Shown in pieces: positions 2,626-16,481 of a stretch of 32,000 nucleotides of DNA. Position 1 is the first letter of the stretch. Each line of letters opens with the position of its first letter. This DNA is from Candidatus Electronema aureum (GTDB taxonomy: Bacteria > Desulfobacterota > Desulfobulbia > Desulfobulbales > Desulfobulbaceae). A program made the translations under genes and the position numbers. The notes below the pieces were generated by a model, which was given only the letters and a program-made list of their open reading frames with translations, did not search any database and was not told where the DNA came from. The stretch is from positions 90,001-122,000 of the forward strand of contig NQJD01000001.1 of NCBI GenBank assembly GCA_004284765.1, given 5' to 3'.

Positions 2626-4632
2626 ATGACGCAAGCCAAGCTGTCCAGCGCTGATGCAGTACCCGTAGAACGCAGCTTCTTCCATCGTCTCTGGCGCACT
2701 CTAATCGGTGCGCCACGTGGCTTGGCTGACAAGTCACTCTTTCATCACCTGTCGCTGATCCCCTTCCTTGCTTGGGTGGGCTTAGGCGCAGACGGCCTGT
2801 CGTCCTCGTCCTACGGCCCGGAGGAAGCCTTCCGCGCTCTTGGCGAGCACTCCTATCTGGCTGTGCCGCTGGCTTTGCTGATGATCGCCACAGTGCTCAT
2901 CATCTCGCTGGCCTACAGCCGGATCATCGAGGCCTTTCCCAGCGGCGGCGGCGGATATCTGGTGGCCACGAAGCTGCTTGGGCCACGGGTCGGCGTGGTC
3001 TCTGGCTCGGCCTTGGTGGTGGACTACATCCTGACCATCACCATCTCAATAGCTGCGGCTGGCGATGCCCTGTTCAGCTTTGTGCCGCTCCATCTCCATC
3101 ACTGGAAGCTGACTGTTGATGCCATGCTCCTGCTCGGTCTGGCCACGCTCAACCTGCGCGGCGTGCGCGAGTCCGTGGTGGCCTTGACCCCGGTCTTCAT
3201 CGTCTTTGTCATCACCCACCTGCTGCTGATCGGCTACGGCATCTTCAGTCATGCCAGCGAAATGCAGGCAACGGCGGCCAAAGTCACCGACGGCTTCTCG
3301 CAGGGGCTTTCCAATGTCGGCGTGTTCGGCCTGCTGCTCCTGCTTCTGCGAGCCTTCTCACTCGGCGGCGGCACCTACACTGGTATTGAAGCGGTCTCCA
3401 ACGGCCTGCCGATCATGCGGGAACCCCGTGTGCCGACCGCGAAACGCACCATGCTCTATATGGCCTCGTCGCTAGCCTTCACCGCAGCGGGCCTGCTGCT
3501 CTGCTATCTCCTCTGGAGCATCAGCCATGTGCCAGGCAAGACCATGAACGCTGTGCTGGCCGAGCGTGTCGCTGCGCAGCTTCCCTTCAGCAGCACCTTT
3601 GTCTTCCTGACGCTCTTCTCTGAAGGCGCACTGCTGATTGTGGCCGCCCAAGCGGGCTTCATTGACGGGCCGCGCGTGCTGGCCAACATGGCCGTGGACT
3701 CCTGGATGCCGCACCGCTTCTCCGCGCTCTCTGACCGTCTAACCACGCAGAACGGCATCCTCCTCATGTGCGGGGCGGCACTGAGTGCGCTCATCTACAC
3801 CAAGGGCAATGTCAGCGCGATTGTGGTCATGTACAGCATCAACGTCTTCCTCACCTTCTCGCTTTCCATGCTCGGCATGTTGCAGCACTGGATCAGCCGC
3901 CGCGCAGAGCAGCATTGGCGGCGGCAGGCAGCCTTGTTCGCGGTCGGCCTGCTGCTCTGCGTCTCCATCCTGACCGTCACAGTCTTGGAGAAGTTCACCG
4001 AAGGCGGCTGGATGACGGTGGTGGTGACAGGGATGCTGGTAGGGCTGGCCTTTATCGTGCGGAAGCATTATGGCATGGTCTATGACAAGATCTCCGAGCT
4101 GTATCAGGAAGACATGGTGGAGCTTGCCCATGTCCCGGCAGGCGAGGAAGCAGCAGTCGGCCCGCTTGATCCCAGCCAGCCGACCGCCATTCTCTTGGTC
4201 AGCTCGTACAGCGGCTTGGGCATCCACACCATGCTCAACATCTTCCGCATGTTCCCTGGCTACTATAAGAACCTGCTCTTTGTCACGGTCGGCGTGGTGG
4301 ATTCAGGGGTGTTCAAGGGAGAAGAGACCGTGGATGCCCTGCAAGAGGAGACAGAGAAGATGCTGGCCCGCTATCTGCGCTTGGCCAAACGTCTGCGCAT
4401 CCCTTGTGAATGCGACTACGAGCTGGGCACCGATGCGGTGGACGAGGCGGAGAAGCTCTGCCGCAGGCTCCATCGCGAGTTCCCCAAGGCCACCTTCTTT
4501 GCCGGCAAGATCGTCTTCCAGCGCGAACGCTGGTACCAGCGCCTGCTGCACAATGAGACCGCCTTTGCCATTCAGCGGCGGCTGCAATGGAGTGGCCAGA
4601 CGATGATGATCATTCCGGCAAGGATGGCGTAG
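2626..4632 (+). CDS. kimA: KimA-family K+/H+ symporter (APC superfamily) with a C-terminal cytoplasmic domain
   Basis: The protein aligns by eye with B. subtilis KimA/YdaO along its whole length: WRTLIGAPR, LGADGLSSSSYGPEEA, FPSGGGGYLVATKLLG, VVDYILTITISIAAAG, LNLRGVRESV, LLLLRAFSLGGGTYTGIEAVSNGLP and the C-terminal RERWYQRLLHNETAF. An AAGGAGG SD sits 6 nt upstream of the ATG. Confidence 0.9.
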   Translation: MTQAKLSSADAVPVERSFFHRLWRTLIGAPRGLADKSLFHHLSLIPFLAWVGLGADGLSSSSYGPEEAFRALGEHSYLAVPLALLMIATVLIISLAYSRIIEAFPSGGGGYLVATKLLGPRVGVVSGSALVVDYILTITISIAAAGDALFSFVPLHLHHWKLTVDAMLLLGLATLNLRGVRESVVALTPVFIVFVITHLLLIGYGIFSHASEMQATAAKVTDGFSQGLSNVGVFGLLLLLLRAFSLGGGTYTGIEAVSNGLPIMREPRVPTAKRTMLYMASSLAFTAAGLLLCYLLWSISHVPGKTMNAVLAERVAAQLPFSSTFVFLTLFSEGALLIVAAQAGFIDGPRVLANMAVDSWMPHRFSALSDRLTTQNGILLMCGAALSALIYTKGNVSAIVVMYSINVFLTFSLSMLGMLQHWISRRAEQHWRRQAALFAVGLLLCVSILTVTVLEKFTEGGWMTVVVTGMLVGLAFIVRKHYGMVYDKISELYQEDMVELAHVPAGEEAAVGPLDPSQPTAILLVSSYSGLGIHTMLNIFRMFPGYYKNLLFVTVGVVDSGVFKGEETVDALQEETEKMLARYLRLAKRLRIPCECDYELGTDAVDEAEKLCRRLHREFPKATFFAGKIVFQRERWYQRLLHNETAFAIQRRLQWSGQTMMIIPARMA

Positions 4633-4644
4633 TTCCGTCAGTAA

Positions 4645-4670
4645 TAGGGGCGAAAGATTTTTCGCCCCTA
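4645..4670 (+). terminator. REP-like hairpin, probable kimA terminator
   Basis: TAGGGGCGAAA-GAT-TTTTCGCCCCTA forms a perfect stem of 10-11 bp starting 13 nt after the kimA stop. It shares its arms with the repeat at 30299-30355. Confidence 0.5.
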
Positions 4671-4828
4671 CATCGCACACATGCTTGGTGCAGCCGCTGT
4701 GTGTAGGTTCTTCCGCTCCTGCGCTGGCTTTTGTTGAATGCCGCCTCCCTCCAGCGGAAATTCCTTGTTATTCACACCTGCCGGATGGTATTTTCAGTCC
4801 ATGCAATCATCTGAAGAAGGAGGGAAGC

Positions 4829-6940
4829 ATGGCCTTGGAAGTTCTGAGCTTCGTCAAAGCGGCGTGGATAGTGCCGCTCTGGAAGCGGCTTCGCCGAATA
4901 AGAGAAGAGGAAAAGCAGGAGCTGGAACGTCTGCGGGACGAGTTCGTTGATCCTGAAACCCTGCGCGGCCTCTACATTGAGCCGTTTCTGCAAGACCGCA
5001 ACCCGGCTGATGTGCAGCAGGACGATCTGCTGTCTGCGGCCCGGCAGCCTGCCTTTGAGCGGATCAACGAGTTCTTTCAGGGCGGTCTGCCTTTGGAGAA
5101 AGATGGCCGCCACCAGATGTTCATCCTCTCTGATGCCGGGATGGGCAAGACCTCGCTGCTCCTCATGATCAAGCTCATGCACCTGACCAGCTTCTGGCCT
5201 CAAGGGCATGGCTGCGCCCTGTTCAAGCTGGGCGCGGACACCTTGGAGCGGGTGCAGGCTCTGCCGAACAAGGGTGGGACCGTCCTCCTGCTTGATGCCT
5301 TGGATGAAGACCCGCTGGCGTGGAAGCGCATCCGCGACCGCCTGCTGGAGCTGCTGCGGGCCAGCGAGGATTTCCGCCGGGTGCTCATCTCCAGCCGCAC
5401 CCAGTTCTTCCCGGAGATGGAGCCAGACCGCTTTGGCCGCCCGGAGATCAGAGTGCTGTCCGGCTATCACTGCCCGGTGCTGTATCTTTCCCCCTTCACC
5501 GATGCCCAAGCGCAGGACTTCATTGAGCGCAAGCTGCCGCTGCGCTGGCATCATCATCTGCGGCTCCGGGCTGGCACGATCAGGAAGGAGCGGGCCAAGG
5601 CTGACTGTCTGCTCAAGCACATGCAGGATTTGCGGATGCGGCCCATGCTCCTCCAGCATATTGACAAGCTGCTGGCCAAGGACTGCCGCCAAGACTGGAA
5701 CGCCTACACGGTGTACGAGGCCCTGCTGGAGGAATGGCTTGACCGTGAGGTGCGCAAGCTGCGGGAGCAGCACAAGGAGCGGCGCGTCCCTGAGCGCAAG
5801 GAACTCTTTCTGGCCTGCCTGCGGATTGCCGAGCGGATGCAGCGGCAGGGAACGCGGGTCATCTCGGAGGACGAGCTGAAGCAGCTCATCAGTGCGGACG
5901 CGAACATAGCCTGGCTGGAGCAGTTCGAGCTGGGCGGTCGTTCCCTGCTCAATCGCAACTCTGACCGCGCCTTCCGCTTCAGCCATTACACGGTGCAGGA
6001 GTTCCTCTTGGCGTGGGGCATAGTGCATAAGCAGTTGACTGAACAGGAACCGCTGTGGGCCACGGATCAGCTTGTGCGCTTTGTTGATCTTGCTGACGGG
6101 ATATTCAGGCACGTTGATCAGATTGCCTTACCCTGTCCTTTGCCGGAGTCTTTTGGCGGTGGACTCGGAATAAAGATGATACTTATACGCGGCGGTAGTT
6201 TCCGCATGGGAGATATTCAGGGCAATGACAGTGAAGATGAACGGCCTGTACATGAGGTGGAGCTGGACGAGGACGACTTGGACGACTTTTTCTCTTTTGA
6301 AGAAGATGAAGATAAACTGCCAGTGCATGAGGTGGTGCTGGACAGCTTTGCCCTTGGCCGCTATCCAGTCACCTTTGCTGAGTATGATGCCTTCTGTGAG
6401 GCCACAGGTAAAGAAAAACCGAAAGATGAGGGCTGGGGTCGGGCGCAGCGGCCAGTGATCCGTGTGTGCTGGCATGATGCTGTCGCCTATTGTGCGTGGC
6501 TGCGCCAAGAAACTGGTCAGCCCTATCGTCTGCCCACCGAGGCGGAGTGGGAGTATGCCTGCCGGGCAGGCAGCGAGGCGGCTTGGTGTTTCGGAGATGA
6601 TGAGGCTCAACTTGAAGACTATGCTTGGTACAAGAAGAACTCCGGCGATACAACCCATCCAGTTGGCGAGAAAAAGGCCAATGTCTGGGGCCTGCATGAT
6701 ATGCACGGCAATGTCCGGGAGTGGTGTGCGGACTGGTATGATGCTGGTTATTATGCCGTCAGCCCTAAGGACAATCCGCTAGGCCCTGAGAGTGGCTTGT
6801 ACCGCGTGCTTCGCGGCGGTAGCTGGGACAGCACGCCCAAAAGCGTGCGGGCGGCGAATCGCGACGTGAGCGCACCAGGCTTCCGCGACTACGACTTGGG
6901 GTTCCGGCTTGCCCTTTCCTTGCCGCCAGCTCAACGCTGA
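4829..6940 (+). CDS. NACHT (STAND P-loop NTPase) protein with a C-terminal FGE-sulfatase (SUMF1/FGS) domain
   Basis: The ATG at 4829 follows GAAGGAGGGA. NACHT motifs: Walker A LSDAGMGKTSLLL, Walker B VLLLDALDED, and VLISSRTQFF. FGE-domain motifs: RGGSFRMG, LGRYPVTFAEYDAF, RPVIRVCWHDAVAYCAWL, YRLPTEAEWEYACRAG, NVWGLHDMHGNVREWCADWY and RVLRGGSW. Confidence 0.85.
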   Translation: MALEVLSFVKAAWIVPLWKRLRRIREEEKQELERLRDEFVDPETLRGLYIEPFLQDRNPADVQQDDLLSAARQPAFERINEFFQGGLPLEKDGRHQMFILSDAGMGKTSLLLMIKLMHLTSFWPQGHGCALFKLGADTLERVQALPNKGGTVLLLDALDEDPLAWKRIRDRLLELLRASEDFRRVLISSRTQFFPEMEPDRFGRPEIRVLSGYHCPVLYLSPFTDAQAQDFIERKLPLRWHHHLRLRAGTIRKERAKADCLLKHMQDLRMRPMLLQHIDKLLAKDCRQDWNAYTVYEALLEEWLDREVRKLREQHKERRVPERKELFLACLRIAERMQRQGTRVISEDELKQLISADANIAWLEQFELGGRSLLNRNSDRAFRFSHYTVQEFLLAWGIVHKQLTEQEPLWATDQLVRFVDLADGIFRHVDQIALPCPLPESFGGGLGIKMILIRGGSFRMGDIQGNDSEDERPVHEVELDEDDLDDFFSFEEDEDKLPVHEVVLDSFALGRYPVTFAEYDAFCEATGKEKPKDEGWGRAQRPVIRVCWHDAVAYCAWLRQETGQPYRLPTEAEWEYACRAGSEAAWCFGDDEAQLEDYAWYKKNSGDTTHPVGEKKANVWGLHDMHGNVREWCADWYDAGYYAVSPKDNPLGPESGLYRVLRGGSWDSTPKSVRAANRDVSAPGFRDYDLGFRLALSLPPAQR

Positions 6941-6953
6941 AGCGGCCTGCAAG

Positions 6954-7038
6954 CACACCAGTGATGTCCCATCCTCCTCACCAGTGTGCAGCCGCTCTCC
7001 ACACCAGTGATGTCCGCGCCTCGACACTGGTGTGCAGC
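6954..7038. repeat. tandem ~46-bp repeat (two units); the second unit forms a 10-bp hairpin
   Basis: CACACCAGTGATGTCC occurs at 6954-6969 and 7000-7015. The two units end in CACCAGTGTGCAGC (6979-6992) and CACTGGTGTGCAGC (7025-7038). CACACCAGTG (7000-7009) pairs with CACTGGTGTG (7025-7034). Confidence 0.6.
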
Positions 7039-7164
7039 ATCCCACAAAAGGCAGGCCGGAATGACATCTTCTTGCGTTCAGCTCGAACCAGGCGGAAACT
7101 ATTTGCAAAGACTAACACGGCAGTTGCCTGATCTCAATCTCTTCAACCAAGGAACAACAAATCA

Positions 7165-7827
7165 ATGGAACTCATTGCAGAAGTGATTAATTTTGTCCTC
7201 CACGTTGACACCTATCTCGAAAGCATCATCTTGGAGTACGGTGCGTGGACGCTGGCTATCCTTTTTGTCATCGTCTTTCTGGAAACAGGCTTCGTGGTCA
7301 CGCCTTTTCTGCCCGGCGACTCGCTTATTTTCGCTGCGGCTACCTTTGCTGCACGCCCCAGCAGCACTCTTGACCCCTGGTTACTCTTCTTTCTGCTCTC
7401 CATCGCCGCTGTACTCGGTGATACAGTCAATTATTGGATTGGCTATCGCATCGGAGCTAAAGCCTACACCGGTGAAGTTAAGTGGATTAAGAAACAATAC
7501 ATGGAGCGCACCCATGTTTTCTTTGAAAAGCATGGTGGGAGGACAATTTTCCTTGCTCGCTTCGTGCCGATCATCCGTACATTCGCTCCTTTTGTTGCTG
7601 GAGTCAGTCGGATGCCATACGGTTTCTTTATCCGCTGGAACATCATCGGTGGCATTACTTGGGTGGCGGTATTCACGCTCTTGGGTGTATTCTTCGGCAA
7701 TATCCCTTTTGTCCAGAAACACTTTGAATTAGTGATCATCGTCATCATTGTTCTCTCGGTTATCCCGGTAATTATCGAGGCAGTGAAGGCACACCGAGAG
7801 TTCCGCCAAGAGAAAAGCAAAGACTGA
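7165..7827 (+). CDS. dedA: DedA-family inner membrane protein
   Basis: Carries the DedA signatures VTPFLPGDSLIFAAATF and FLARFVPIIRTFAPFVAGV and has a multi-TM profile. Confidence 0.85.
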   Translation: MELIAEVINFVLHVDTYLESIILEYGAWTLAILFVIVFLETGFVVTPFLPGDSLIFAAATFAARPSSTLDPWLLFFLLSIAAVLGDTVNYWIGYRIGAKAYTGEVKWIKKQYMERTHVFFEKHGGRTIFLARFVPIIRTFAPFVAGVSRMPYGFFIRWNIIGGITWVAVFTLLGVFFGNIPFVQKHFELVIIVIIVLSVIPVIIEAVKAHREFRQEKSKD

Positions 7828-12254: not shown

Positions 12255-12985
12255 CGTTGGTGTTCGTGGGGTCGGTCGCCATATGTGTGAACATGATGGT
12301 GGCTATGCAGACATTCGGTACCACTGCGCAGCGCACATCCTTCGCTTAACGTATATATCTCATCGCAGGTTTCAGCGAGAAAGTCCCAGTCATGCGAGAT
12401 GATCATGTAGCCGATCTCCAGCCGGTTGAGAATGCTGATCAGGCGAGTGCGGATATTGCTGTCGAGGTTGTTGGTTGGTTCATCTAAGAGCATCGCTTCT
12501 GGCTGCATAGACAAGATCGTGGCTAAGGAAATCAGCTTTTTCTCGCCGCCAGAAAGCTGATGTGTAACTCTCTCTGCCAAGGCGGAGAGACCAAGATCAG
12601 CTAATGTTTGGCGAGAGATACGCAGGGCTTCTGCTGGGTTCATGCCGAGATTGAGCGGGCCAAAGGCAATATCTTCAATCACCGTGGGCGAAAAAAGTTG
12701 GTCATCGGCATCTTGAAAGACCAAACCGATGCTTCGGCGTAGCTTGCGGAATTCCTCTTTACTGCTGATCTCTTGGCCCTTAAACAGCAGCCTCCCTGCT
12801 GTGGGTCGCAGCAGTCCCATGATGATATGCAGCAATGTGGTTTTGCCGCTACCGTTCGGGCCAATCAAACCAATACGCTGGCGATAATCCAGCGTCACGT
12901 CTGCTTGGTTGAGCAGCAGATGGCTGCTACCGGGATAGGCAAAAGATACCTGCTGAAGCTGGATAAGGGTTGGGTTAGCGGGCAT
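12251..12985 (-). CDS. cbiO: ECF/Cbi-Nik type ABC ATP-binding protein (CbiO/NikO) with a His-rich C-terminal tail
   Basis: Walker A GPNGSGKTTLL, signature LSGGEKKL and Walker B MLLDEPTNNLD. The tail reads ECLHSHHHVHTYGDRPHEHQR. Confidence 0.85.
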   Translation of the reverse strand: MPANPTLIQLQQVSFAYPGSSHLLLNQADVTLDYRQRIGLIGPNGSGKTTLLHIIMGLLRPTAGRLLFKGQEISSKEEFRKLRRSIGLVFQDADDQLFSPTVIEDIAFGPLNLGMNPAEALRISRQTLADLGLSALAERVTHQLSGGEKKLISLATILSMQPEAMLLDEPTNNLDSNIRTRLISILNRLEIGYMIISHDWDFLAETCDEIYTLSEGCALRSGTECLHSHHHVHTYGDRPHEHQR

Positions 12986-13050
12986 GTTGCTTTGAGTTAG
13001 TCGGTTGCATAAAGATTGATAGCAGCTCGTTAGTGAAGATGGGCATGAGC

Positions 13051-13464
13051 TTACCGGGAAGCCGCTGCTGCTGGGCGCGGCAGCTTCTTGGCCTTTGCCG
13101 CTGCAACCTTGTAGGGCTGAATCAGCACGTCCGCCGCAATGCCCAGTCCTGTATGCAGCTTTTGAATCATGGGTAGCGACAGGGAACGCTGCCGGTTGAT
13201 GATCTCGGCCACCCGCGCCCGTGTGCCGATAAATGGCTCTAAATCTTTCCGTGACAAGCCCCGGCTTTCCATCTGGTAGAGAATAGCCTCAACTGGATCA
13301 GGCTTGGGCAGATCGTAACGACCTTTCTCGTAGGCTTCAACCAAAATGGTCAGCATGTTCAGCTGGTCGCCGTCAGCAGTGTCTGCTTCCGCTGCAAACA
13401 GCCGCTCTATCTCCGCCAAAGCCTGCTGATACTCTGCTTCCGACCGGATTGGCTTCATATCCAT
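13051..13464 (-). CDS. higA: HigA-family antitoxin (XRE-type HTH)
   Basis: MKPIRSEAEYQQALAEIERLF.. followed by the HTH region LSRKDLEPFIGTRARVAEIINRQRSLSLPMIQKL. It lies 12 nt downstream of higB with a GAGGAG SD, so the order is toxin first, as in higBA. Confidence 0.8.
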   Translation of the reverse strand: MDMKPIRSEAEYQQALAEIERLFAAEADTADGDQLNMLTILVEAYEKGRYDLPKPDPVEAILYQMESRGLSRKDLEPFIGTRARVAEIINRQRSLSLPMIQKLHTGLGIAADVLIQPYKVAAAKAKKLPRPAAAASR

Positions 13465-13476
13465 AACTTGTTCTCC

Positions 13477-13770
13477 TCACACGCTGGCTGCATCAACAGC
13501 ATCGTATTCCGCATGAGTGCCGACAAAGCGGATATAGACGATGCTGTATTCGTAGTGAATAGCCACAATCACGCGGTACTTGTTGCCTTTGATGTTGAAC
13601 ACCGCCCGGTTGTTGGCAACAAAGCTGACGTTGCGGTACGCATTCTTCACATCCGCAGGCGACTTCCAGTCCGCTTGTTGCACGTCCGTATGCCATGACT
13701 GCAAGGCTTGCTGCGCATCAGCATGTTTTTCCCAGAATTCCCGGAGAGTCTTTTTGGCAATGATCCGCAT
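13477..13770 (-). CDS. higB: HigB-family toxin (RelE-like mRNA interferase)
   Basis: From the ATG at 13770: MRIIAKKTLREFWEKHADAQQALQSWHTDVQQADWKSPADVKNAYRNVSFVANNRAVFNIKGNKYRVIVAIHYEYSIVYIRFVGTHAEYD. This is the typical HigB_toxin pattern. Confidence 0.8.
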   Translation of the reverse strand: MRIIAKKTLREFWEKHADAQQALQSWHTDVQQADWKSPADVKNAYRNVSFVANNRAVFNIKGNKYRVIVAIHYEYSIVYIRFVGTHAEYDAVDAASV

Positions 13771-13776
13771 GAGAAC

Positions 13777-13804
13777 ATTATACGCTAATCCCTTAGCGGG
13801 AACA
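13777..13804 (-). promoter_or_regulatory. putative higBA promoter (TTGTTC-17-TATAAT) with an overlapping operator palindrome; possibly a leaderless transcript
   Basis: On the minus strand TATAAT (13777-13782) lies only 6 nt before the higB ATG. The inverted repeat CGCTAA-GGGA-TTAGCG (13783-13798) fills the spacer. Confidence 0.45.
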
Positions 13805-13913
13805 AAACAGTGCTTCAGCCATGTGCTTTTCTCCGGTTGCTCCAAGTTGTATGCTTGCAAAGCTGGGCTACAAGGCAACAGCACGGTAGAGGTAGGCTGG
13901 GTTTTATTTTATA

Positions 13914-14285
13914 CTACGATGCTGGTGGCATTATTAATACAACCAGTGGATCTTCTTTTATTCGTTTTATCAATCTTTTAAGTTCGCCATCACTTGTTGA
14001 GTTTGGATAACGCAAACTACTAACAATATCCCACAATACAGTTCCACTTCTAAAAAACCTCACGCACTCTCCTGCCTCATCGATAGATGGGAAAACACGA
14101 ACACCAAGGTCTGATAAAGCTTCTTGTATCCCCTCGCGCGCACTTTTAGCTAAACGAATAGAATCGTCTTGCGCAGCAGTTCTATACATTAATTGCAATT
14201 CGCTATATTGAATTGTAATAAAGCTGTAATTCCCTTGGTCCATACGATATTTTATTTCTTTAGCTACTTTTCTAAAAACTTCCAT
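13914..14285 (-). CDS. hypothetical protein (123 aa), AT-rich gene
   Basis: The ATG at 14285 follows AGAGG (the ORF track starts 2 codons earlier at a TTG). Begins MEVFRKVAKEIKYRMDQGNYSF... No motif recognised. Its composition differs from the GC-rich gene immediately upstream (14424-15494). Confidence 0.5.
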   Translation of the reverse strand: MEVFRKVAKEIKYRMDQGNYSFITIQYSELQLMYRTAAQDDSIRLAKSAREGIQEALSDLGVRVFPSIDEAGECVRFFRSGTVLWDIVSSLRYPNSTSDGELKRLIKRIKEDPLVVLIMPPAS

Positions 14286-14423: not shown

Positions 14424-15494
14424 CTACACCTCCAAATCCAAAATATCCACCAGCCTGCCGTCGTAATCGTTGCGAATCATCGTTCTGAGCGCGGCGTAGT
14501 TGTTGACCTTGATCTTCAAGCTGCTCACGGCGGAACCGGCAAAACCGGGCAGCGTGAATTCCCCGTTCGCGGTCACGGGCACCATGCCGCCGACCGCGCC
14601 GCCGTCGCGCATGGCAATCAGCCGGAATGAGAGCTGATTTTCCTGCACACTGGCATCTGCCTGAATGCGCAGCCGCTCGCTGGCCGAGAGGGTGCAGGCG
14701 GTGATGCTGACATGCGGCGTAGCCGCGCTGCCGGTGAGAATGCCGGTCTCCGGCGGGTTCGGATGATCGAGATTGACGGCGGTCAGCGGCGAGCGCAGCT
14801 TGCGTCCGTAGGTGCCGCTGCGCAGCGAGCCGTGCTCGGTGTAGCGCGTCGTGACCGACACCGTGTACTCGTTGTTCCAAGGATGGGCTTGGGCCGGAAT
14901 GTGCGGCACCAGCAGGATTTCCGTGTCGCTGACGCTGGCGAGCTGGCTTTGTTTCTCGCTGCCGCTACGGGTGCCTTCGATGACACAACCACAGTCCGGC
15001 TTTTTCGGGTCAAAGAGCAGATTGCTGCCGGTCAGCCGGAGCACGCCGTCCGGGTTGAGGACATTGTTCAGCTCAAGCGTGGTGTCTGCGGCGGAGAGGA
15101 TGGACGGGGCCTTTTCCTCGGTCGAAACCCGTTCCAAGGTCACGTTCTGCTGCACATATTGGACAAAGGGGCGCGTGGCCGAGACGCTGATCCGCAGCAG
15201 CTCGCTGACCGGCGGCAGCGGGTCAGCCGGGCTGTTCAGCTTGCCACGGAAGGCGGGGGCGAAGGTCAATGCCTCCTCCAGCGTGACCTGCATCCCGTTG
15301 CAGAGCATCTCTTTGATATTCTTCATTGTTGACTGAATGGAGGCCTTGGCCTGCTCCGCGCTCAGGCCGGTGTCTTTGGCAACGGCGGCGGCCAGCTCGT
15401 CATAGCCCGCTGTCTGCTTCGGCATGAAGCGCAGCTTGTAGGATGCAGGTTTGGTCAGAGGATTCGGCTCGACGCGGTATTGCACAGTTCCCAT
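14424..15494 (-). CDS. HU-like (HU-HIG type) DNA-binding domain protein with a C-terminal Ig-like DUF4469-like region
   Basis: The N-terminus VQYRVEPNPLTKPASYKLRFMPKQTAGYDELAAAVAKDTGLSAEQAKASIQSTMKNIKEMLCNGMQVTLEEALTF matches the Bacteroidota-type HU-like pattern. A later segment, LRLTGSNLLFDPKKPDCGCVIEG, resembles DUF4469. A GGAGGG SD precedes the ATG. Confidence 0.6.
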   Translation of the reverse strand: MGTVQYRVEPNPLTKPASYKLRFMPKQTAGYDELAAAVAKDTGLSAEQAKASIQSTMKNIKEMLCNGMQVTLEEALTFAPAFRGKLNSPADPLPPVSELLRISVSATRPFVQYVQQNVTLERVSTEEKAPSILSAADTTLELNNVLNPDGVLRLTGSNLLFDPKKPDCGCVIEGTRSGSEKQSQLASVSDTEILLVPHIPAQAHPWNNEYTVSVTTRYTEHGSLRSGTYGRKLRSPLTAVNLDHPNPPETGILTGSAATPHVSITACTLSASERLRIQADASVQENQLSFRLIAMRDGGAVGGMVPVTANGEFTLPGFAGSAVSSLKIKVNNYAALRTMIRNDYDGRLVDILDLEV

Positions 15495-15621: not shown

Positions 15622-15730
15622 AATACATACTGGTATGTATTGAGGAAACATACTGTATAGTTTTCCCGGAACATACCAGTATGTATTGGCGGAACATACT
15701 GGTATGTATTTGGGATACTATTCGGTATGT
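15622..15730. repeat. array of 4-5 palindromic sites, core ACATAC-N2-GTATGT
   Basis: AATACATACTGGTATGTATT (15622-15641); a degenerate site AACATACTGTATAG (15647-15660); GGAACATACCAGTATGTATTGG (15668-15689); GGAACATACTGGTATGTATTTGG (15691-15713); and a degenerate site GATACTATTCGGTATGT (15714-15730). Confidence 0.8.
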
Positions 15731-15755
15731 TTTTTGGGGGAGGTGGGGCGAGGGT

Positions 15756-16481
15756 TTAAGGCTGGGGTGCGAGGTTAATCAACCTTGCCATGGAACAACG
15801 AATATAACTTTCATTTTCCTTATCCCAATCTGTCATTATTCCTATTAATTTACTGGAAAAACCAGATGATCCATTGCTTGATAATTCAATAACAGGCCCT
15901 CCCGACATACCATTGGGATTTGGAGCTGTACTTTGTGACCCATCACAACGGGGTACTTTTTTCTTTTGAAATTTACAGAAAAAGTGTACTTCTTGATGAA
16001 CTTTCTTGATAGGCTGCGAAGGAAAATCTATAATTTTTGTTAACATATAAAAAGGCTCAACAAATGTTCCTTTGCTCGATATTGAAACCTTACTTTGAGG
16101 GTAGCCAAGCAAAAGAATACTATTTTCAGATCGATTAACTATAGAGTCACTTATCAATTCAATAGGAGAAAAAAATTCCAACTCTTCTGTTAAATAGACA
16201 AGAGAGATATCAACATCAGCCTCGTTGCAAGATATTTTCACCGCTTGATCTATAGGGATACTTGCAAGTTCCTCTCTCCTCAGAGGAATGATATTCTTTG
16301 CAAGCTCCTCATGGTCAATAACATGAGATGCTGTTGCCAAGTAATATTTATCCTTTATTTTTAGATAGACAGCACATCCTGAATATTCATATTTTCTTTT
16401 TATAGTTCCTATCCTGTAGACAGGAACAACATGTTTTTGAATATTCAGAAGAACTGGTTCGTACTGCTTGTAGTCAAACAT
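15756..16481 (-). CDS. trypsin/chymotrypsin-fold serine protease without a signal peptide, AT-rich gene
   Basis: The catalytic triad motifs appear in H-D-S order: LATASHV (His), DVDISLVYL (Asp) and NGMSGGPV (Ser). The N-terminus MFDYKQYEPVLLNIQKH is not hydrophobic. Confidence 0.7.
   Translation of the reverse strand: MFDYKQYEPVLLNIQKHVVPVYRIGTIKRKYEYSGCAVYLKIKDKYYLATASHVIDHEELAKNIIPLRREELASIPIDQAVKISCNEADVDISLVYLTEELEFFSPIELISDSIVNRSENSILLLGYPQSKVSISSKGTFVEPFYMLTKIIDFPSQPIKKVHQEVHFFCKFQKKKVPRCDGSQSTAPNPNGMSGGPVIELSSNGSSGFSSKLIGIMTDWDKENESYIRCSMARLINLAPQP

Follow-up and report, generated by a model that had tools for sequence, protein, structure and literature searches.

What does a protein filed publicly as a formylglycine-generating enzyme (FGE)/SUMF1 family protein do in a cable bacterium? 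The question is raised by the gene at positions 4829 to 6940 of a 32,000-nucleotide (nt) stretch of Candidatus Electronema aureum contig NQJD01000001.1, called the window below. Its product joins a NACHT-type nucleoside triphosphatase (NTPase) of the STAND class (signal transduction ATPases with numerous domains) to a C-terminal FGE-like domain whose fold is that of C-type lectins. The original prediction, made from the letters of the DNA, laid its stress on an acidic insertion in the FGE-like part; this stress is misplaced, and the unusual feature is the stretch of about 30 residues at the C-terminus. We consider it probable (roughly 70%) that the gene is a target of the kind rewritten by diversity-generating retroelements (DGRs) and that it encodes a sensor resembling the nucleotide-binding leucine-rich-repeat receptors (NLRs), while it is about as likely as not that diversification continues in this genome. 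In a DGR, an error-prone reverse transcriptase (RT) copies a template repeat (TR) and randomises its adenines, for the most part those of AAC codons; the cDNA then takes the place of the variable region (VR) of the target gene.

The putative variable region lies at the extreme C-terminus of the lectin-fold domain, on an RGGSW...GFR scaffold (Table 1). In the cable-bacterial subfamily 1, represented by 25 sequences 62-84% identical to the query, the mean pairwise identity per block of 15 residues was about 0.9 in the NTPase core, and 0.47 and 0.31 in the blocks covering residues 661-690, which are the least conserved apart from the linker. The loci of relatives of the C-terminal domain were scanned for pairs of repeats that mismatch at the adenines of one copy, and genuine TR/VR pairs were found beside DGR reverse transcriptases in eight of them (L016, L051, L059, L064, L091, L099, L150 and L152). 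The template repeats of these loci encode RGGSWNNNPxNxRxxNRNxNxPxNRNNNxGFR, and their Asn (AAC) positions coincide with the hypervariable columns of W-DST-P-KS-VRAA-N-R-DVS-AP-GF-R-DYD-LGFR. The residues K, E, Q, M and W cannot be encoded by NNC codons; they make up 7 of 250 residues (2.8%) at the 10 hypervariable columns and 446 of 1498 (29.8%) in the other variable columns (Fisher p ~1e-25, relatedness ignored). Likewise, the third base of the hypervariable codons in eight genes is C in 66 cases, T in 10, G in four and A in none.

The comparison of nearly identical Electrothrix orthologues showed where such genes differ. Of the eight residues (among 701) that separate proteins P0008 and P0129, seven lie in the 36-residue variable region; for P0012 and P0131 the count is 16 of 695, with 12 in that region. 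At the DNA level, 20 of the 33 differences between the genes of loci L179 and L001 fall within 97 nt (21% versus 0.65% elsewhere, p 1e-19). None of these 20 affects codon position 3, compared with 10 of the 13 differences elsewhere (p 3e-6), and transitions account for five of the 20, compared with 10 of 13 (p 0.005). Since orthologues this close differ in the variable region, diversification in cable bacteria is very recent. Moreover, a second, paralogous cable-bacterial subfamily, which provides an internal control, conserves the same stretch (WDSSAKFASSCFRFCLSPGLRIIRAGFRVA), and the region is therefore not intrinsically unconstrained. The cable-bacterial subfamily shows a hypermutation that is limited to the variable region, affects first and second codon positions and is restricted to NNC codons. 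As a separate observation, the L179 and L001 genes also carry eight mostly synonymous differences within 61 nt of the NTPase region (gene nt 912-972), in a pair otherwise 99.3% identical; this cluster looks like a short recombination tract.

As a rival reading, the same variation might come from a plain NACHT-FGE anti-phage sensor of the kind originally predicted, whose tip would change only through conventional diversifying selection and through exchange among paralogues by recombination, no retroelement being involved. Recombination has clearly exchanged the linker and the C-terminal half, the searches described below found no RT, and the third-position divergence between the window gene and its closest relative at the DNA level, the copy in Electronema sp. 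V4, is no higher in the variable region than over the remainder of the lectin domain; all three points suit this alternative. Selection, however, leaves unexplained the shortage of residues that NNC codons cannot encode, the fixed third bases, the lack of third-position changes together with a random-like transition:transversion ratio within 97 nt of genes that are 99.3% identical, and the match of the variable columns to the Asn codons of verified template repeats. We regard a sensor varied by selection alone as quite unlikely.

The domain that carries the variable region is a known support for this kind of variation. FGE-sulfatase is the only family that Pfam sees in the window protein, and a Foldseek search with the C-terminal domain matched PvdO, TvpA and FGE, the FGE structures with E ~1e-16 and a TM-score to the target of ~0.67. 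By sequence, the best relative with a solved structure is TvpA of Treponema denticola (PDB 2y3c, E 3e-34), a DGR variable protein. The RGGSW...LGFRLA stretch aligns residue for residue with TvpA, in what we take to be the variable region of that protein. TvpA belongs to the surface lipoproteins and is not known to carry an NTPase.

The public name and the Pfam match would also fit a housekeeping FGE that matures sulfatases, an alternative raised along with the original prediction. The catalytic, copper-binding cysteine pair of human FGE is C336/C341. In the alignment with the copper-bound FGE of S. coelicolor, LCHDSYCNRYR stands against three gap positions followed by DSTPKSVR, with the first catalytic cysteine in the gap and the second opposite a proline. 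The window protein thus lacks both cysteines, its FGE-like domain is moreover joined to a STAND NTPase, and the neighbourhood contains no sulfatase gene. The housekeeping enzyme was rejected on these grounds, and we give it next to no chance. The name 'formylglycine-generating enzyme', carried by this gene and by hundreds of its relatives, is a wrong annotation.

The N-terminal two thirds of the protein belong to the NTPase. An AlphaFold2 model based on 75 homologues (predicted local distance difference test, pLDDT, 86.4; predicted TM-score 0.68) matched, in this part, the NACHT module of rabbit NOD2 (5irm) with E 5.4e-11 and probability 1.0 over 434 columns in Foldseek. The motifs that had been quoted from the sequence were all found: GMGKTS (aa 104-109, nt 5138-5155), LLLDALDED and ISSRTQ (aa 187-192). 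Alignment also answered the doubt about their integrity, as the key positions of the Walker A, Walker B and winged-helix motifs are invariant and R190 is at least 90% conserved (Table 1). In NACHT-type STAND NTPases, the P-loop (Walker A) reads GxxxxGK[ST] and the strand of the sensor-1 arginine hhhTSR, and the Walker B motif reportedly reads hhhhD[GAS]hDE. The winged-helix motif FRFSHYTVQEFLLA resembles the histidine motif of NLRs, 'F.H.sfQEFLAA'. Pfam sees less: the threshold of the NACHT model (PF05729) was not reached, and the N-terminal 460 residues gave sub-threshold matches only, to nSTAND3 (0.11), NPHP3_N (0.12) and NACHT (E 4.1). Among 23 family members, nine match nSTAND3 (PF20720, best E 1.9e-5) and two match NACHT (best 0.0019), all below the curated Pfam cut-offs. 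Judged by its sequence, the NTPase is a divergent clade between NACHT and nSTAND3. The designation as a NACHT-type STAND NTPase is accepted here because of the motifs and the similarity of the fold to NOD2. The predicted NACHT-FGE fusion thus stands as a STAND NTPase fused to an FGE-like domain, and fails as far as the Pfam NACHT threshold is concerned.

At the N-terminus, a separate region of about 95 residues had been proposed. The extra part is shorter, comprising only about 45 residues with two to three predicted helices; residues ~48-95 (LYIEPFLQDRNPAD...) belong to the NTPase module, as its conserved section ahead of the P-loop. The start Met is shared with the orthologues in the alignment. 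A phmmer search of residues 1-45 against 1.84 billion representatives gave eight matches, all of them fragments of the same family. Because only such fragments were returned by this exhaustive search, an adaptor of the effector-associated domain (EAD) type, shared with an unlinked effector, is unsupported, and it was rejected. No effector domain was found in the window protein by Pfam, PADLOC or NCBIfam, in agreement with the earlier remark that none is recognisable.

Table 1. Features of the NACHT-FGE gene, its surroundings and related loci (positions are those of the window unless a locus is named; conservation figures refer to 75 aligned sequences)
Feature	Position	Strand	Description
GC-rich hairpin GGGGCGAA-AGATTT-TTCGCCCC	4647-4668	+	Read from the sequence; 15 nt past the stop of the KimA-like gene
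Ribosome-binding site AAGGAGG	4817-4823	+	5 nt ahead of the ATG at 4829
Coding sequence of the NACHT-FGE gene	4829-6940	+	703 aa, uninterrupted; N-terminal helices, NACHT-type STAND NTPase, linker, FGE-like C-type-lectin-fold domain
N-terminal ~45 aa	4829-4963	+	AlphaFold2 helices 11-22, 26-38 and 42-45; hydrophobic, then basic, then acidic segment
NACHT-type STAND NTPase module	4970-6088	+	Pre-P-loop strand YIEP, nucleotide-binding domain, helical and winged-helix domains
Walker A, DAGMGKTS, aa 102-109	5132-5155	+	All 75 sequences have G104, G106 and K107
Walker B with NACHT-type acidic tail, LLLDALDED, aa 153-161	5285-5311	+	D156 and D161 invariant in 75 sequences
Sensor-1 strand ISSRTQ (VLISSRTQ)	5387-5404	+	R190 conserved in at least 90% of 75 sequences
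Winged-helix motif FRFSHYTVQEFLLA	5972-6013	+	F384, H386 and E391 invariant in 75 sequences
Linker / domain-shuffling junction	6089-6175	+	Unrelated to the Electronema sp. V4 copy; flanks 81-97% identical
FGE-sulfatase / C-type-lectin-fold (FGS) domain, catalytically dead	6176-6919	+	Pfam FGE-sulfatase E 4e-55, aa 495-695
In-frame 75-nt insertion	6232-6343	+	37-nt direct repeats 6232-6268 / 6307-6343 flank novel acidic 38 nt 6269-6306; placement ambiguous within the repeat
Putative DGR variable region, aa ~658-694	~6800-6912	+	YRVLRGGSW-DST-P-KS-VRAA-N-R-DVS-AP-GF-R-DYD-LGFRL
Array of 23-nt-period units, palindromic core CACCAGTG/CACTGGTG	6953-7038	+	Directly 3' of the gene
Identity to V4 copy, NTPase part			93-97%
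Identity to V4 copy, linker			Unrelated (46% aligned identity)
Identity to V4 copy, lectin-fold domain			81-85%
Identity to V4 copy, variable region			72%
Identity to V4 copy, last 28 nt of coding sequence			~97%
Avd remnants	L168 12194-12403; L169 2854-3063; L170 2488-2697; L175 11212-11310		Directly 3' of NACHT-FGE homologues
DGR cassette of L176	3517-7235		Caspase-PEGA-FGE target 3517-5418; Avd 5504-5869; RT 5866-6936; TR 6938-7057

The acidic insertion was examined in the same alignments. As had been noted, PVHEV occurs twice (6245-6259 and 6320-6334), inside 37-nt repeats that are 86% identical and 75 nt apart, and the 25 residues between the copies are very acidic, with 12 Asp/Glu in LDEDDLDDFFSFEEDEDKLPVHEVV. 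The window protein is 100% identical to a public record, and its nearest relatives, from Candidatus Electronema spp., are 80-84% identical to it, which marks the organism as a cable bacterium of the freshwater type. None of the aligned homologues, 22 at first and 74 afterwards, contains the insert, these relatives included; it is not a feature common to the family. An in-frame duplication or insertion in the sensor domain is thus real and unique relative to 74 homologues, but it lies near the start of the domain, outside the part that varies in the family. In the AlphaFold2 model the insert is a loop between two strands with a pLDDT of 41-44, probably disordered. An assembly artefact was considered and rejected, as the identical 703-residue protein is present in two independent Logan assemblies (SRR14559658 and SRR14559659). 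The 25 residues form a lineage-specific loop, possibly without function.

Several results count against a DGR target in this genome. RT, Avd and a template repeat were not found in the 32-kb window by repeat search, a regular expression for RT motifs or tblastn with three DGR reverse transcriptases and two Avds, and no repeat of 6800-6912 is present in the window. RT, Avd and TR are also absent within 10 kb of seven cable-bacterial copies (L081, L085, L086, L167, L171, L179 and the window), and among all 179 loci no cable-bacterial one gave a match to RT or Avd by motif search or tblastn. The neighbourhoods consulted for family members likewise showed no RT within 10 kb. The predicted template repeat TGGAAYAAYACGCCCAARAAYGT was unmatched in viral and metagenome contigs, and a search with the guessed TR-encoded peptide returned 225 short open reading frames (ORFs) of the TR type, which came from many phyla and of which none could be assigned to a cable bacterium. 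The direct evidence of hypermutation comes from the Electrothrix orthologues, which are ~69% identical, not from Electronema aureum, in which the variable region is identical in SRR14559658 and SRR14559659, with no obvious heterogeneity in the population. The window-V4 pair, given its third-position divergence, cannot by itself separate hypermutation from selection. Finally, a defence function finds no support from PADLOC-DB 2.0 (0 families at E <= 0.01, with bNACHT, Avs and others among the models) or from an effector.

The wider scans returned the following. With the window protein, genome contigs gave four close loci and then generic FGE-domain genes among the matches listed; with the family alignment, metagenomes gave only FGE-domain relatives among the matches listed, and these were the source of the verified DGRs. 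The genome that the window comes from was not among the matches listed in either scan. The pyrimidine-rich CCCTTT tracts and GC hairpin present 3' of verified variable regions are not clearly present at the window gene. The case for the absence of RT, TR and Avd from this genome is weak, a small part of the genome having been inspected.

A trace of DGRs does occur in more distant members of the family. Full-length homologues of the same architecture, ~44% identical, were found in Competibacter and Contendobacter, and truncated Avd genes lie ~90 nt past their stop codons (70 aa in L168-L170, 33 aa in L175). These remnants are 83-91% identical to full-length entries named 'DGR protein Avd', and they look like decayed DGR cassettes; in three of the four loci (L168, L169, L170, L175) the remnant ends at a parDE toxin-antitoxin pair. 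A complete DGR of the same Avd clade was reached through the neighbourhood of the Avd protein P0199 in L176, where the mismatches between TR and VR fall at TR adenines in 17 of 17 cases. Within one 90% cluster, the variable regions of the Competibacter members are themselves hypervariable, and an identical protein occurs in three Competibacter metagenome-assembled genomes (MAGs). Two side observations concern the L176 locus itself: a second caspase-FGE target lies 7 kb away (12323-14014), and the template repeat was miscalled as a 94-residue ORF by the gene caller. Hundreds of such TR-ORFs are annotated publicly as 'SUMF1/EgtB/PvdO family nonheme iron enzyme'.

These data bear on the possibility that the window gene is a frozen relic, that is, a descendant of a DGR target in an Electronema genome that has no working DGR, with a fixed sensor surface that changes by point mutation only. 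The failure to find RT, TR and Avd either in the window or close to any of the cable-bacterial copies, the identity of the variable region in two runs, and the truncated Avd and the protein shared by three MAGs in Competibacter, which show that decay and stasis occur in the family, all speak for it. However, Electrothrix orthologues at the conspecific level differ almost only in the variable region, and the inspected part of the genome is small. We hold a relic to be possible, though the less likely state of the gene.

Under the preferred reading, that of a DGR-type target encoding an NLR-like sensor, the product would be a receptor, predicted to be cytoplasmic, made of N-terminal helices, a STAND switch and a lectin-fold sensor. 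The NTPase, which looks functional, would act as an oligomerisation switch, and the FGE-like domain, having lost catalysis, would bind ligands. An RT and TR acting in trans from elsewhere in cable-bacterial genomes would rewrite nt ~6800-6912 in dispersed single-gene targets, of which this copy would be a current or recent one. A ligand bound at the lectin tip could then lead to NTP-dependent oligomerisation, and the oligomer to a defence or abortive response, through either the N-terminal helices or an unlinked effector.

A bolder version would make the conserved N-terminal amphipathic helix (MALEVLSF...) an executioner that enters the membrane once the protein oligomerises, like the MADA/alpha-1 helix of ZAR1-type resistosomes, in dispersed effector-less NLR-like receptors whose tips are rewritten in trans by one remote DGR or by a hypermutator unlike the known DGR reverse transcriptases. 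The consensus of the plant MADA helix of coiled-coil NLRs, alpha-1 in ZAR1, is MADAxVSFxVxKLxxLLxxEx (PMC6944444), and MALEVLSFVKAAWIVPLWKRL shares five of its 14 specified positions (M1, A2, S7, F8 and L17), which is a resemblance only. This version appears doubtful; if it were true, a centimetre-long multicellular filament would possess an adaptive-like, cell-autonomous immune receptor.

The gene also has a history of movement. About 70 nt 5' of the start are nearly identical at the non-syntenic V4 copy, and the 23-nt-period array 3' of the gene is kept, and is longer, 3' of that copy (L081 12110-12256), while it is absent from every other locus compared. The same NACHT module is joined to different C-termini in P0040 and P0032, and the housekeeping genes around the orthologues are unrelated from locus to locus (pntA/mnmA, gatB, close to dsr genes, ppx). 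Because the flanks and the 3' array are shared with V4, the linker is unrelated and the NACHT module occurs with other C-termini, we conclude from the sequences compared that the gene moves as a unit and that its halves are shuffled at the linker. The array can form an 11-bp long-range hairpin, and its DNA fold has z = -2.98; it is a possible terminator, DGR target-recognition hairpin or repetitive extragenic palindromic (REP)-like element. Near the 3' end (window 6913-6945 compared with L081) a 1-nt indel shifts the frame, so that translation of the V4 orthologue continues for 12 more residues, running into the beginning of the array, and the two species do not share a stop codon.

In the window, the gene was confirmed to stand alone, as had been predicted from its place between a kimA terminator and dedA: it is a singleton among housekeeping genes. 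The upstream neighbour is a gene of the amino-acid-permease family (KimA-like, 2626-4632), and the downstream neighbour is a VTT/DedA gene (7165-7827); genes for a CxxCxxCC protein, GNAT and SecA are also present in the neighbourhood. The hairpin between the permease gene and the NACHT-FGE gene was not listed by the consensus terminator scan and is without a T run, and from its position it is probably the terminator between the two. A c-di-AMP (cyclic di-adenosine monophosphate) riboswitch (RF00379, 2422-2558, + strand, 91.8 bits, E 1.5e-20) lies directly 5' of the permease gene, and the two together fit a KimA-like K+ importer controlled by c-di-AMP.

Other repeats were recorded farther away. 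Two 60-nt direct repeats (481-632), 85% identical, 92 nt apart and with self-complementary ends, are intergenic beside an ABC ATPase gene (650-2383, - strand). A second 23-nt-period array at 15625-15732, unlike that at 6953-7038 in sequence, contains three perfect 14-nt palindromes ACATACYRGTATGT (6 strand-matches, 0.17 expected) and resembles an operator array; it lies between a trypsin-like ORF (15759-16481, - strand) and the start of a gene of the HU/HU-HIG-like type (14427-15494, - strand). The trypsin-like ORF, of 241 aa, has a sub-threshold match to Trypsin_2 (25.0 bits, cut-off 27.6) and lies 9 kb away from the NACHT gene. Elsewhere, STAND/DGR systems have trypsin-like peptidases as partners. 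As a partner here the ORF was rejected, as SecA and other genes intervene and the pairing is not conserved, and it is probably unrelated to the NACHT-FGE gene.

The neighbourhoods of the homologues include some conflict-type genes, none of them conserved: toxin-antitoxin and SMODS genes in L167, and caspase-like genes in L171 and L179. In addition, L172 is a plasmid-like contig of 36.7 kb, on which a Competibacter family member is accompanied by Rep3, ParA, DarT-Macro (DarTG), an SNF2 helicase and methyltransferases; a trypsin-family gene 476 nt downstream of this member is, for that lineage, a candidate for the effector partner. In Electrothrix, a second paralogue, of the conserved, non-hypervariable subfamily, comes after the orthologue (L179 12500-14600, L167 12844-15150). 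The paralogue is intact in L167, where a YoeB/Phd pair lies between the two genes, and in L179 it is found in an uncalled 2.5-kb stretch and is probably a pseudogene.

Instead of serving anti-phage defence, the receptor may take part in self/non-self or kin recognition, or in developmental signalling in the filament. The family is concentrated in multicellular or aggregate-forming cable bacteria, Competibacter and Gammaproteobacteria resembling large sulfur bacteria, the locus shows neither an effector nor a defence-island context, and according to Doré et al. (PMC10907252) the role of such proteins as antigen sensors is still to be tested experimentally. On the other hand, some homologues adjoin toxin-antitoxin, SMODS, trypsin, caspase or DarTG genes, and the bacterial STAND NTPases of known function are mostly anti-phage (PMC13581612). 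We consider a role in recognition or development unlikely.

If the gene is indeed a DGR-type target encoding an NLR-like sensor, cable bacteria join the multicellular bacteria that hypermutate such receptors, and the proposed link between multicellularity and an anticipatory, antibody-like diversification of immune sensors becomes stronger. Scattered single-gene targets would moreover allow the reach of a DGR in trans, and the cis elements that mark a target, to be tested, and the receptor, having no fused or adjacent effector, offers a clean case for asking how signalling works in a minimal STAND receptor.

Among known systems, the closest are the DGR-diversified STAND NTPase sensors of multicellular bacteria, exemplified by the targets of DGR 3 and DGR 6 of Thiohalocapsa PB-PSB1, 'clade 5D' (Doré et al. 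2024, PMC10907252). The window gene shares with them the central NACHT/nSTAND NTPase, the C-terminal FGE-type lectin fold ending in a variable region and the multicellular host, and, with many members of this type, an N-terminal extension without a known domain. The PB-PSB1-type targets, unlike the window gene, adjoin an RT-Avd-TR cassette, are usually paired and often lie beside peptidase effectors (PMC10907252), whereas the window gene is a singleton without a partner, and RT, TR and Avd were not found in its vicinity. Neither that paper nor its supplements mention cable bacteria, and a search for literature linking them to DGRs or reverse transcriptases found nothing relevant; a STAND NTPase with a DGR-diversified lectin-fold sensor is apparently unreported in this group.

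The FGS-domain proteins of NTP-dependent conflict systems described by Kaur, Burroughs, Iyer and Aravind 2020 (PMC7159879) likewise carry an inactive FGE-like lectin domain, always C-terminal and related to TvpA; these domains are hypervariable via DGRs, and the template repeat may be elsewhere in the genome. The examples given are mainly ternary vWA-MoxR (VMAP/iSTAND) systems with EADs, whereas the window gene has no MoxR, vWA or EAD partner and its N-terminal 45 residues occur on no other protein type. In contrast to TvpA itself, the window protein is fused to a NACHT module and predicted to be cytoplasmic. With the bNACHT and Avs-type anti-phage STAND proteins, among which FGE-sulfatase-like sensors were catalogued in 2026 (PMC13581612), it shares the tripartite logic of N-terminal output, STAND switch and C-terminal sensor; unlike them, it has no PADLOC match and no effector domain, and its sensor is apparently hypermutable rather than fixed. 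Compared with true FGE (human SUMF1 and the enzymes of S. coelicolor and T. curvata), the fold is the same, but the cysteines are absent, an NTPase is fused and no sulfatase gene is nearby. STAND-DGR lectin sensors as such are therefore already known; what the present gene adds is a new host group, the cable bacteria, an arrangement as dispersed singletons without a retroelement in cis or a partner, and a private acidic insert.

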